A stretch of 35,243 nucleotides of DNA from a virus (Duplodnaviria; Heunggongvirae; Uroviricota; Caudoviricetes), in IMG/VR virus record IMGVR_UViG_2737471821_000011, positions 1 to 35,243 of that record, one strand, 5' to 3'. The translations under genes were made by a program, and so were the position numbers. Below the pieces are notes generated by a model. It was not told where the DNA came from, searched no databases, and saw only the letters and a program-made list of their open reading frames with translations. Each line of letters opens with the position of its first letter. Position 1 is the stretch's first letter. Shown one piece after another: positions 31,714-32,448 of the stretch.

Positions 31714-32346
31714 TTAATGCAGTTTATCTTTGCTTATAACCAGTAGTCTGTGGGTATGCACATCTTTATCACTGCCCCAACAGAAATCAGCCCACTGGCT
31801 ATAGAAATCATCCCATGATGTCATGAAGCTAAGAGGTCTATCTTCTTCAGAGCCATCTGAAACGTATACATTATATCCCGGGGTGTTTATAGCCCAAGAA
31901 ATCATTCTTTCCCAGAATCTTCTCCCATCGATTGTTTGTTGCTCATCAGATACAACAATCGCATATTGCTCTAGGAAGAACTGAAAAAAAATCTGAGGCA
32001 AACCATGAACAGCACGGTCATGAATAACATTAGGCGTACGCCATACCATGATCTGCGTACATGTTCTTTTGGCTTCGACGATATCTTCCCGAAAGATTAA
32101 CTTAACCGCATACACCGTTTCTGGAGTATCGCTGGTAGTAATCATTCTGTAATGATCGCCATTACAAGATTTTACAAGGCGATAACCATAAGGTGTTGTG
32201 AATCCCGGAAGAACGAAATCAACCACACCTTTCGCTAAGTAGCTTTCGGTGTGACTAGTGTTCTTCTCAGACATGTTCAGTTTTCTATCGAAATCTGCTT
32301 CTGGGATAATGTATGGCATCGCTTTTCTTGTTGTATTTGTTCTCAT
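31714..32346 (-). CDS. Hypothetical protein (210 aa), unknown function
   Basis: ORF with GGAGG RBS, own promoter-like hexamers and operator, own terminator. No motif I recognise; C-terminus rich in W/D/F. Confidence 0.5.
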   Translation of the reverse strand: MRTNTTRKAMPYIIPEADFDRKLNMSEKNTSHTESYLAKGVVDFVLPGFTTPYGYRLVKSCNGDHYRMITTSDTPETVYAVKLIFREDIVEAKRTCTQIMVWRTPNVIHDRAVHGLPQIFFQFFLEQYAIVVSDEQQTIDGRRFWERMISWAINTPGYNVYVSDGSEEDRPLSFMTSWDDFYSQWADFCWGSDKDVHTHRLLVISKDKLH

Positions 32347-32405
32347 TTCGTCCTCCCATGTTTGGCTACAGGACGCGTTTTGAAGGGAAGATTAAAAATG
32401 CTTTC

Positions 32406-32420
32406 TTACCCTTGAGGTAA
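32406..32420. promoter_or_regulatory. Operator-like inverted repeat TTACC-CTTGA-GGTAA
   Basis: Perfect copy directly abutting the -10-like hexamer of the promoter below. Confidence 0.6.
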
Positions 32421-32448
32421 TAGTACGCTATTCACCCCCAGTCTGCAA
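32420..32448 (-). promoter_or_regulatory. Putative sigma70-type promoter for the 31714..32346 gene
   Basis: Minus strand TTGCAG - 17 bp - TACTAT. Confidence 0.4.

Follow-up and report, generated by a model that had tools for sequence, protein, structure and literature searches.

We analysed a 35,243-nucleotide (nt) stretch of viral DNA, IMG/VR record IMGVR_UViG_2737471821_000011 (hereafter the window), and focused on a minus-strand gene that encodes a protein of 210 amino acids (aa). The window is a phiV10/epsilon15-like (Uetakevirus) Escherichia coli prophage, large parts of which are 96–98% identical to phages phiv142-3, PAS61, ZX5, TL-2011b, and phiV10. The 210-aa gene occupies an ATG-initiated open reading frame (ORF) at 31714..32346, which is supported by its match to PHROG 1349, its composition, and clusters of homologues. 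Its product has a mass of 24.6 kDa and a pI of 6.0, and the G+C content of the gene is 40.8%, compared with 49.7% for the window.

A Shine–Dalgarno sequence, GGGAGGA (32351..32357, minus strand), can be read 5 nt upstream of the ATG, and the GGAGG of this ribosome-binding site is kept in most homologous loci. Further upstream, the perfect 5+5 inverted repeat TTACCTCAAGGGTAA (32406..32420) is fused to a −10-like hexamer, TACTAT (32420..32425, minus strand); it overlaps the last base of the hexamer and the expected transcription start, spanning approximately −7 to +8. A proposed −35 hexamer, TTGCAG (32443..32448, minus strand), is separated from TACTAT by 17 nt. At the other end, the TAA stop codon is followed by a strong intrinsic terminator (~31688..31712, minus strand), a GC-rich hairpin with a 10-bp stem, six G-C pairs, and a U6 run (−17 kcal/mol, z = −2.5), which a simple terminator scan did not list. 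Terminators are found behind nearly all homologues of the gene. The ORF, a strong ribosome-binding site, a perfect operator, and a dedicated terminator had all been part of a preliminary description of this locus and are borne out here.

The neighbouring genes also stand in the arrangement first reported: a gene for an 824-aa virion protein (28788..31262; PHROG 684), the gene for a Bro-N antirepressor as upstream neighbour (32493..33218, minus strand; Pfam Bro-N at 3.6e-19 and PHROG 130), and a plus-strand tailspike ORF, read from the sequence, that starts at 33972. According to the preliminary description, clear homology to a phage protein with a structural or housekeeping function would speak against its view of the gene; we saw none.

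Operators, repressor, and predicted timing of expression

The inverted repeat upstream of the 210-aa gene belongs to a set that extends across the window. Counting TTACC-N5-GGTAA with at most one mismatch over the whole window, we found 12 sites, compared with 0.61 expected; none of 100 shuffles reached 12. One pair lies to the left of the repressor gene (6481, 6543) and another between the repressor gene and a cro-like gene at 7354..7584 (7255, 7303). Further pairs are located at 9586/9648 and, in tandem, at 12042/12060, directly before the small terminase gene, while single operators occur at 15203, at 32406 (210-aa gene), at 33473 (Bro-N antirepressor promoter), and at 33853. Operators are spread genome-wide in this way, and transcription units of the early, middle, and late classes all appear to be under direct repressor control.

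The immunity repressor itself is a 194-aa protein with two helix-turn-helix motifs, encoded at 6615..7199 on the minus strand and recognised by PHROG regulator/repressor matches. It is 99% identical to p40 of phiV10, which is likewise annotated with two helix-turn-helix motifs, and the phiV10 genome (locus L132) carries the same operator set in the same layout (11 sites versus 0.45 expected). The phiV10 repressor sequence is that of the phage ZX5 repressor, the overexpression of which abolishes free phage and lytic transcripts and blocks lytic development; overexpression of the Bro-N antirepressor favours lysis in ZX5 (PMC9782041). The palindrome before the 210-aa gene is most likely an operator of the prophage's phiV10-type repressor, which is predicted to bind it. 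Since the −10 and the expected start both fall within this operator's reach, no expression is predicted in the lysogen; the gene is probably silent there and switched on at induction or infection.

The promoter proposed in the preliminary description holds up in part. Both hexamers and their 17-nt spacing are present, but TTGCAG and TACTAT match the consensus at only three and four of six positions (7/12 overall), which explains why a promoter scan of the window left the pair below threshold and uncalled. The spacer is 7 nt shorter, through an internal deletion, in three natural variants (L006, L010, and L017), making the −35 assignment doubtful. The −10 is more credible: a −10-like hexamer that shares its final T with the beginning of an operator is seen again at 12042 (TACTAT) and 9648 (TTTAAT), and TACTAT+TTACC is found upstream of the homologue in phage LLS as well. 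Transcription could also enter from upstream: the hairpin 3′ of the antirepressor gene is weak, so that read-through into the 210-aa gene from the antirepressor promoter is possible, and that promoter bears the same type of operator.

LexA control of the gene's own promoter was rejected, as a search for CTGT-N8-ACAG at 32346–32493 returned no box and the sole good one precedes another gene. This perfect LexA box, CTGTATATTTATACAG (33798..33813; pattern search), lies between the operator at 33853–33867 and a 91-aa ORF on the minus strand (33519..33794), upstream of the latter. The ORF resembles the C-termini of antirepressors (PHROG 450/1760 similarity), and through the box the SOS response probably feeds into the switch, which would lift repression of the 210-aa gene. 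By its sequence context, the 91-aa ORF looks like a small antirepressor under both SOS and repressor control, and such an arrangement could explain the induction of a repressor without an obvious RecA-cleavable domain.

The Bro-N antirepressor gene has an operator at 33473..33487, which is abutted by a promoter-like TTGAAA-17-TATATT. We further noted that its leader is approximately 220 nt long (region 33218–33515, minus strand) and contains two tandem promoter-like sites (33515–33487 and 33471–33443), followed, ahead of the coding sequence, by a terminator-like hairpin with a T7 run (33382–33366), which may be an attenuator or give rise to a small RNA.

Two further points concern the surroundings of the 210-aa gene. 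A conserved hairpin sequestering its ribosome-binding site seemed plausible by eye and in single folds, and was rejected: RNAalifold gave five pairs with almost no covariation, and the pairing probability was 0.60, the same as with a shuffled upstream sequence (0.60; Wilcoxon p = 0.47). Adjoining the terminator is a small ORF (31454..31687, minus strand; probable start at an internal ATG at ~31615) whose product has a signal-peptide-like N-terminus (MKKAFAALFVLLSLVASTQAFA...) and matches PHROG 3117/14503 ('membrane associated protein'). Having its own promoter-like site (TTGACG-16-TATAGA) without an operator, this ORF looks like a conventional prophage-expressed moron beside the gated gene.

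The cargo slot and the distribution of the family

Comparison with related phages revealed that the position of the 210-aa gene is variable. In TL-2011b, an identical promoter/operator and terminator enclose a 59-aa ORF and a YafO-family toxin gene (L001, 5290–6070), with breakpoints directly after the GGGTAA of the operator and directly before the terminator stem. The corresponding cargo consists of a 108-aa ORF and a DUF2335 membrane protein gene in EC.W1-9 (L058, 2781–3582) and of two tiny ORFs in phiv142-3 (L057, 2943–3419). In phiV10, which has the same backbone, the slot is essentially empty (L132, 2500–2650). Across 5426 complete E. coli genomes, the 210-aa gene is present at an identity of at least 99% in 93, and some part of the surrounding 4-kb stretch (31200–35243) is matched in 576. 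Sequence comparison indicates that the promoter, operator, and terminator are a slot of the phage backbone and that the 210-aa gene is horizontally acquired cargo. The gene is a real, well-delimited accessory gene beside the antirepressor in an exchangeable slot, which supports the slot argument of the preliminary description.

The family to which the gene belongs extends far beyond this slot. In 54 viral contigs, it always stands alone as a unit and is followed by a terminator. Its viral hosts include phiV10-like phages of E. coli, Enterobacter, and Klebsiella. In a P22-like immI locus (L025), the gene order is ant, arc, mnt, and the family member, and the equivalent locus L061 was confirmed to encode Arc and Mnt domains. 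The homologue of the lambdoid phage LLS is placed after the spanins, and some viral contigs have a family member in the middle of tail/baseplate operons. P1-like elements of Citrobacter and relatives (L135–L138, 6001–6687) carry a 228-aa homologue with 47% identity, which is encoded on the opposite strand, with baseplate/tail-fibre genes to one side and the gene of a 1171-aa SLT-domain protein to the other. Distant relatives occur in viral contigs of jumbo-phage size, and further homologues are found on large Aeromonas, Pseudomonas, and Shewanella plasmids.

Among 70 bacterial genomes, many copies lie outside prophages; these are solitary, and within a genus the different species have them at one and the same site among housekeeping genes. 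Naming the chromosomal neighbours from Pfam family counts paired with ORF sizes, we found the homologue flanked by thiD and pagP in Proteus (L080–L097, which comprise Proteus, Providencia, and Morganella), by a PTS IIB gene and hda in Photorhabdus (L065–L074), by nlpB and purC in Providencia, and by a haemagglutinin-repeat gene and a C69 peptidase gene in Morganella. It neighbours metF in Xenorhabdus and a metallo-beta-lactamase-fold gene in Buttiauxella (L098–L109). The intergenic regions upstream of the chromosomal homologues are long (200–600 nt). Across the 70 genomic loci, the nearest ORFs are lineage-variable, mostly housekeeping, and without a shared partner family, and are usually separated from the homologue by more than 100 nt; at a few distant loci, an upstream ORF closely abuts it. 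No conserved partner gene emerged from the 54 viral and 70 genomic loci.

The operator motif has a much narrower range. TTACC-N5-GGTAA is found upstream of the gene solely in its closest relatives, the P22-like locus, and LLS; among the 70 genomic loci it occurs at 2, and we rejected it as a feature of the whole family. In LLS, TACTAT+TTACCCAGAAGGTAA is located upstream of the homologue (L060, 42040–42070), with both half-sites intact and four of the five spacer bases changed. The repressor of this phage is unrelated, and the palindrome before the homologue is the sole perfect copy in its 42.9 kb; it thus represents an orphan operator, which was probably carried along by recombination. The P1-like copies have no recognisable operator, and a search with a P1 C1-type consensus found no site upstream of the homologue.

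A different arrangement was noted at loci of Yersinia, Serratia, Photorhabdus, and Mixta (L027/L028, L032–L040, and L063–L073), where a terminator-like hairpin with a U-run is followed by a conserved CAGAAGUACUCC box. These elements are situated approximately 30–60 nt before the start codon and approximately 30 nt upstream of the ribosome-binding site. As this leaves too little room for an intervening promoter, the arrangement suggests read-through of a leader terminator, by attenuation or antitermination.

Protein family and predicted fold

The 210-aa protein has no match in Pfam or NCBIfam, and among 5027 PADLOC defence models (PADLOC-DB v2) no family matched it at E ≤ 1. It matches PHROG 1349 over its full length (E = 3e-113), a family that carries no functional annotation. 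A word-indexed search returned 63 homologous clusters at 90% identity, all from Enterobacterales and without exception labelled as hypothetical or phage protein, and an exhaustive profile search returned 918 clusters at 50% identity. When 108 diverse relatives were compared with Pfam, none matched a GNAT model; all 108 matched PHROG 1349 and 28 of them also PHROG 3307, which is likewise without an assigned function. Two family profiles searched against the PDB sequences returned chance matches only, and we found no paper that mentions the protein accession or PHROG 1349. Hydropathy analysis (highest 19-residue Kyte–Doolittle mean 1.05, GRAVY −0.45) detected no membrane segment and no evident signal peptide, and the protein is predicted to be soluble and cytoplasmic.

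Structure prediction was more informative. With an alignment of the 108 sequences, AlphaFold2 produced a model with a pLDDT of 90.7 and a pTM of 0.83; a less confident first model, from a shallow alignment (pLDDT 79.5), gave the same picture of the fold. Foldseek searches against viral structures placed uncharacterised phage proteins at the top (TM ~0.65–0.7), including one from the Agrobacterium jumbo phage Atu_ph07, followed by NAT_SF proteins. Two independent structure searches agree on a GNAT-type mixed alpha/beta fold for the predicted structure; AtaT scored no better than dozens of other GNATs. The preliminary description had recognised no domain; this stands for the Pfam, NCBIfam, and PADLOC models, but not for the AlphaFold2 and Foldseek results, by which the modelled fold is a divergent GNAT-like (acyl-CoA N-acyltransferase) one, an assignment that is consistent but remote.

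Across the 108 relatives (23–50% identity), the best-kept residues are N29, Y79, Q98, W102, R103, D134, Q137, T138, G141, F144, W145, Y161, D164, W190, and G191, of which N29, Y79, Q98, R103, D134, Q137, T138, Y161, and D164 are polar. Several of them form the block SD-x2-QT-x2-G-x2-FW, which in the model sits at the junction of a strand (130–132), a loop, a helix (139–153), and a further strand (159–164). In canonical GNATs, motif A (Q/R-x-x-G-x-G/A) occupies the loop from strand 4 to helix 3 and binds the pyrophosphate of CoA. The block (SD134-x-x-Q137-T138-x-x-G141-x-x-F144-W145) appears to lie at the topological place of this motif but reads T-x-x-G-x-R instead of the canonical sequence; its glycine is 81% conserved. 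With polar residues conserved across the relatives and the block at the apparent motif A position, the 210-aa protein is likely an enzyme.

Unusual architectures occur at the margins of the family. In one rare fusion (P0153), a relative is joined to an MqsA-type antitoxin zinc ribbon, and in another (P0136) a weak SRA-like (modified-base-binding) domain precedes the family domain at the N-terminus (Pfam E = 0.0022, below threshold). The N-terminal extensions of P0136 and P0140 matched no solved structure, and the SRA hint stays weak. A 270-aa paralogue from E. coli, E. fergusonii, and E. albertii (cluster P0144) combines the family domain with a C-terminal DUF5397, for which the literature yielded nothing useful; paralogues of this type are common in E. 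coli, where they occur on more than 200 contigs.

Proposed role and relation to known systems

We tentatively favour the view that the 210-aa gene is a repressor-gated accessory cassette for a stand-alone GNAT-fold enzyme that acts at induction or infection, with counter-defence or host takeover as its likeliest role. In the lysogen, repressor bound to the operator would block the promoter, which is taken to be a weak sigma-70 one. Upon DNA damage, the SOS response would release the LexA-controlled small antirepressor, and the repressor would be inactivated by this protein and then by the Bro-N antirepressor, the gene of which would be derepressed together with the 210-aa gene. The latter would give rise to a short, probably monocistronic mRNA, as it would early after infection, and its product would act alone, as an enzyme that acylates some molecule of the host or the phage while lytic development proceeds.

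Several observations weigh against this proposal. The proposed promoter of the gene is a weak one that lacks a conserved −35, and a lone operator may repress only weakly. The orphan operator of LLS, together with the P1-like copies that have no recognisable operator, argues that repressor gating is not general in the family. The motif-A-like loop, T138-x-x-G141-x-R143, lacks the final Gly/Ala. Moreover, solitary copies at fixed chromosomal loci suggest that the function serves the bacterium, with no necessary link to lytic growth.

This last point leads to a possible, if rather unlikely, alternative, in which the gene protects the lysogen, either as a single-gene anti-phage defence or exclusion factor or through inactivation of an antibiotic or bacteriocin by its GNAT product, and is expressed at a basal level or upon titration of the repressor. 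The solitary homologues at housekeeping loci in Proteus, Providencia, Photorhabdus, Morganella, Xenorhabdus, and Buttiauxella and those on large plasmids would fit such a role. So would the promoters of the LLS and P1-like copies, which are unmatched to the resident repressor and could be constitutive, and the position of the gene, which equals that of sieA in P22-type immI regions, as illustrated by the order ant, arc, mnt, gene. Against it, none of the PADLOC models matched, and relatives are found in jumbo-phage-sized contigs and in Atu_ph07, where there is no lysogen to protect. The operator over the −10 and start also predicts silence in the lysogen of the window prophage, which disfavours the classical prophage-expressed superinfection exclusion that the preliminary description had raised for this position; the lack of a membrane segment in the soluble product, unlike in SieA-type exclusion proteins, weakens that suggestion further. 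Anti-defence, the other role that it had named for this position, gains neither support nor contradiction from these results. A growth-arresting effector like the tRNA-acetylating toxins, silenced at the transcriptional level by the repressor instead of an antitoxin and serving host shutdown or the commitment of the cell once repressor is lost, seems quite unlikely. The YafO-family toxin with its small upstream ORF in the same slot of TL-2011b, the layered control by operator and dedicated terminator, and the zinc-ribbon fusion of P0153 speak for it. However, no antitoxin-like ORF adjoins the gene here or at other loci: on the strand of the gene, neither the interval from 32493 to 32346 nor that from the stop codon to the terminator holds an ORF of at least 40 aa. 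For a toxin, it is unusual to persist in chromosomes as a lone, stable copy that has long regulatory regions but lacks a partner, and the structural similarity to AtaT is no better than that to dozens of other GNATs.

In a similarly unlikely, and slightly weaker, alternative, the protein would be non-enzymatic and GNAT-like and would act by binding to a protein of the host or the phage, perhaps to inhibit it or to regulate the lysis–lysogeny switch. Its non-canonical CoA motif and the lack of a GNAT HMM match are compatible with this, as is its place beside two antirepressor genes under the same type of operator, and the conserved W102, W145, and W190 could form a binding surface. Yet the polar residues conserved across very distant relatives resemble an active site, and the dispensability of the slot, empty in phiV10, along with the presence of the family in unrelated phages with different repressors, argues that the gene is not part of the switch. 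Very unlikely, finally, is a Mom-like enzyme that would alter phage DNA or RNA to evade restriction. Lytic-timed expression would suit such a modification, the Mu protein Mom is itself a GNAT-fold enzyme that modifies DNA adenine (PMC13219725), and P0136 carries the SRA-like domain. That domain, however, scored below the Pfam threshold and was unconfirmed against solved structures. A comparison of the family profile with Mu Mom by hhalign, moreover, gave a probability of 0.1% (E = 0.5), on which we rejected kinship; there is no Com-like partner and no upstream ORF, and the solitary chromosomal copies would modify host DNA.

The GNAT-like fold provides a concrete biochemical hypothesis, acyl transfer. 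The slot offers a natural experiment on cargo released by induction, being empty in one phage and filled with the 210-aa gene or a YafO toxin pair in others. The family, with its 918 clusters at 50% identity, is without annotation in Pfam, PHROGs, NCBIfam, and PADLOC and is found in phiV10-like, P22-like, lambdoid, P1-like, and jumbo phages, on plasmids, and in enterobacterial chromosomes. Should the target be a defence protein or a nucleic acid, it would constitute a new family of enzymatic counter-defence; otherwise, the 210-aa gene would be an ordinary accessory gene. A bolder extension, which we consider unlikely, is that PHROG 1349 is the founding set of widely mobile GNAT-fold enzymes that covalently modify a component of host immunity or a nucleic acid against defence, in principle like AcrVA5 or Mom, and that the slot is a dock for induction-only effectors, including toxin modules.

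In relation to known systems, the 210-aa protein resembles the GNAT superfamily in the overall alpha/beta fold of its model; its conserved strand-loop-helix block appears to sit where motif A lies but departs from the canonical sequence, and the curated sequence models (Pfam Acetyltransf_* and NCBIfam) miss the protein. It appears to be a new, unannotated, and remote branch of this fold; moron-like cargo and the GNAT fold are both of known kinds, and the computed evidence points to no unusual mechanism. From the type II GNAT toxins TacT, AtaT, and KacT, the protein differs in length (210 aa versus ~170–180 aa), in having no adjacent antitoxin gene (RHH or DUF1778 type) at any locus examined, and in showing no specific similarity to them.

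Like the morons of lambdoid phages, the 210-aa gene is a single low-G+C gene with a promoter and a terminator that is missing in close relatives and inserted between conserved backbone genes. It differs from them in that the promoter, operator, and terminator appear to belong to the backbone slot and that the immunity-repressor operator predicts expression at induction, not in the lysogen. A further parallel is the immI/sieA slot of P22, which has the same surroundings: the gene of the last internal virion or ejection-type protein on one side, and those of the antirepressor and tailspike on the other. SieA resides in the inner membrane, where it brings about exclusion, and is produced by the prophage, whereas the 210-aa protein is predicted to be soluble and repressor-gated, through an operator that belongs to the main repressor and to neither Mnt nor Arc.

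The phage-encoded GNAT effectors AcrVA5, Rac, and Mom offer further parallels. The substrate that AcrVA5 acetylates is Cas12a. In phiKMV-like phages, Rac acts on the alpha subunit of RNA polymerase (PMC7552054), and Mom of Mu uses glycyl-tRNA for its DNA modification (PMC13219725). The 210-aa protein has no detectable sequence relationship to any of the three, but it shares with them the design of a small, stand-alone protein of predicted GNAT fold that would serve phage lytic growth against host functions.

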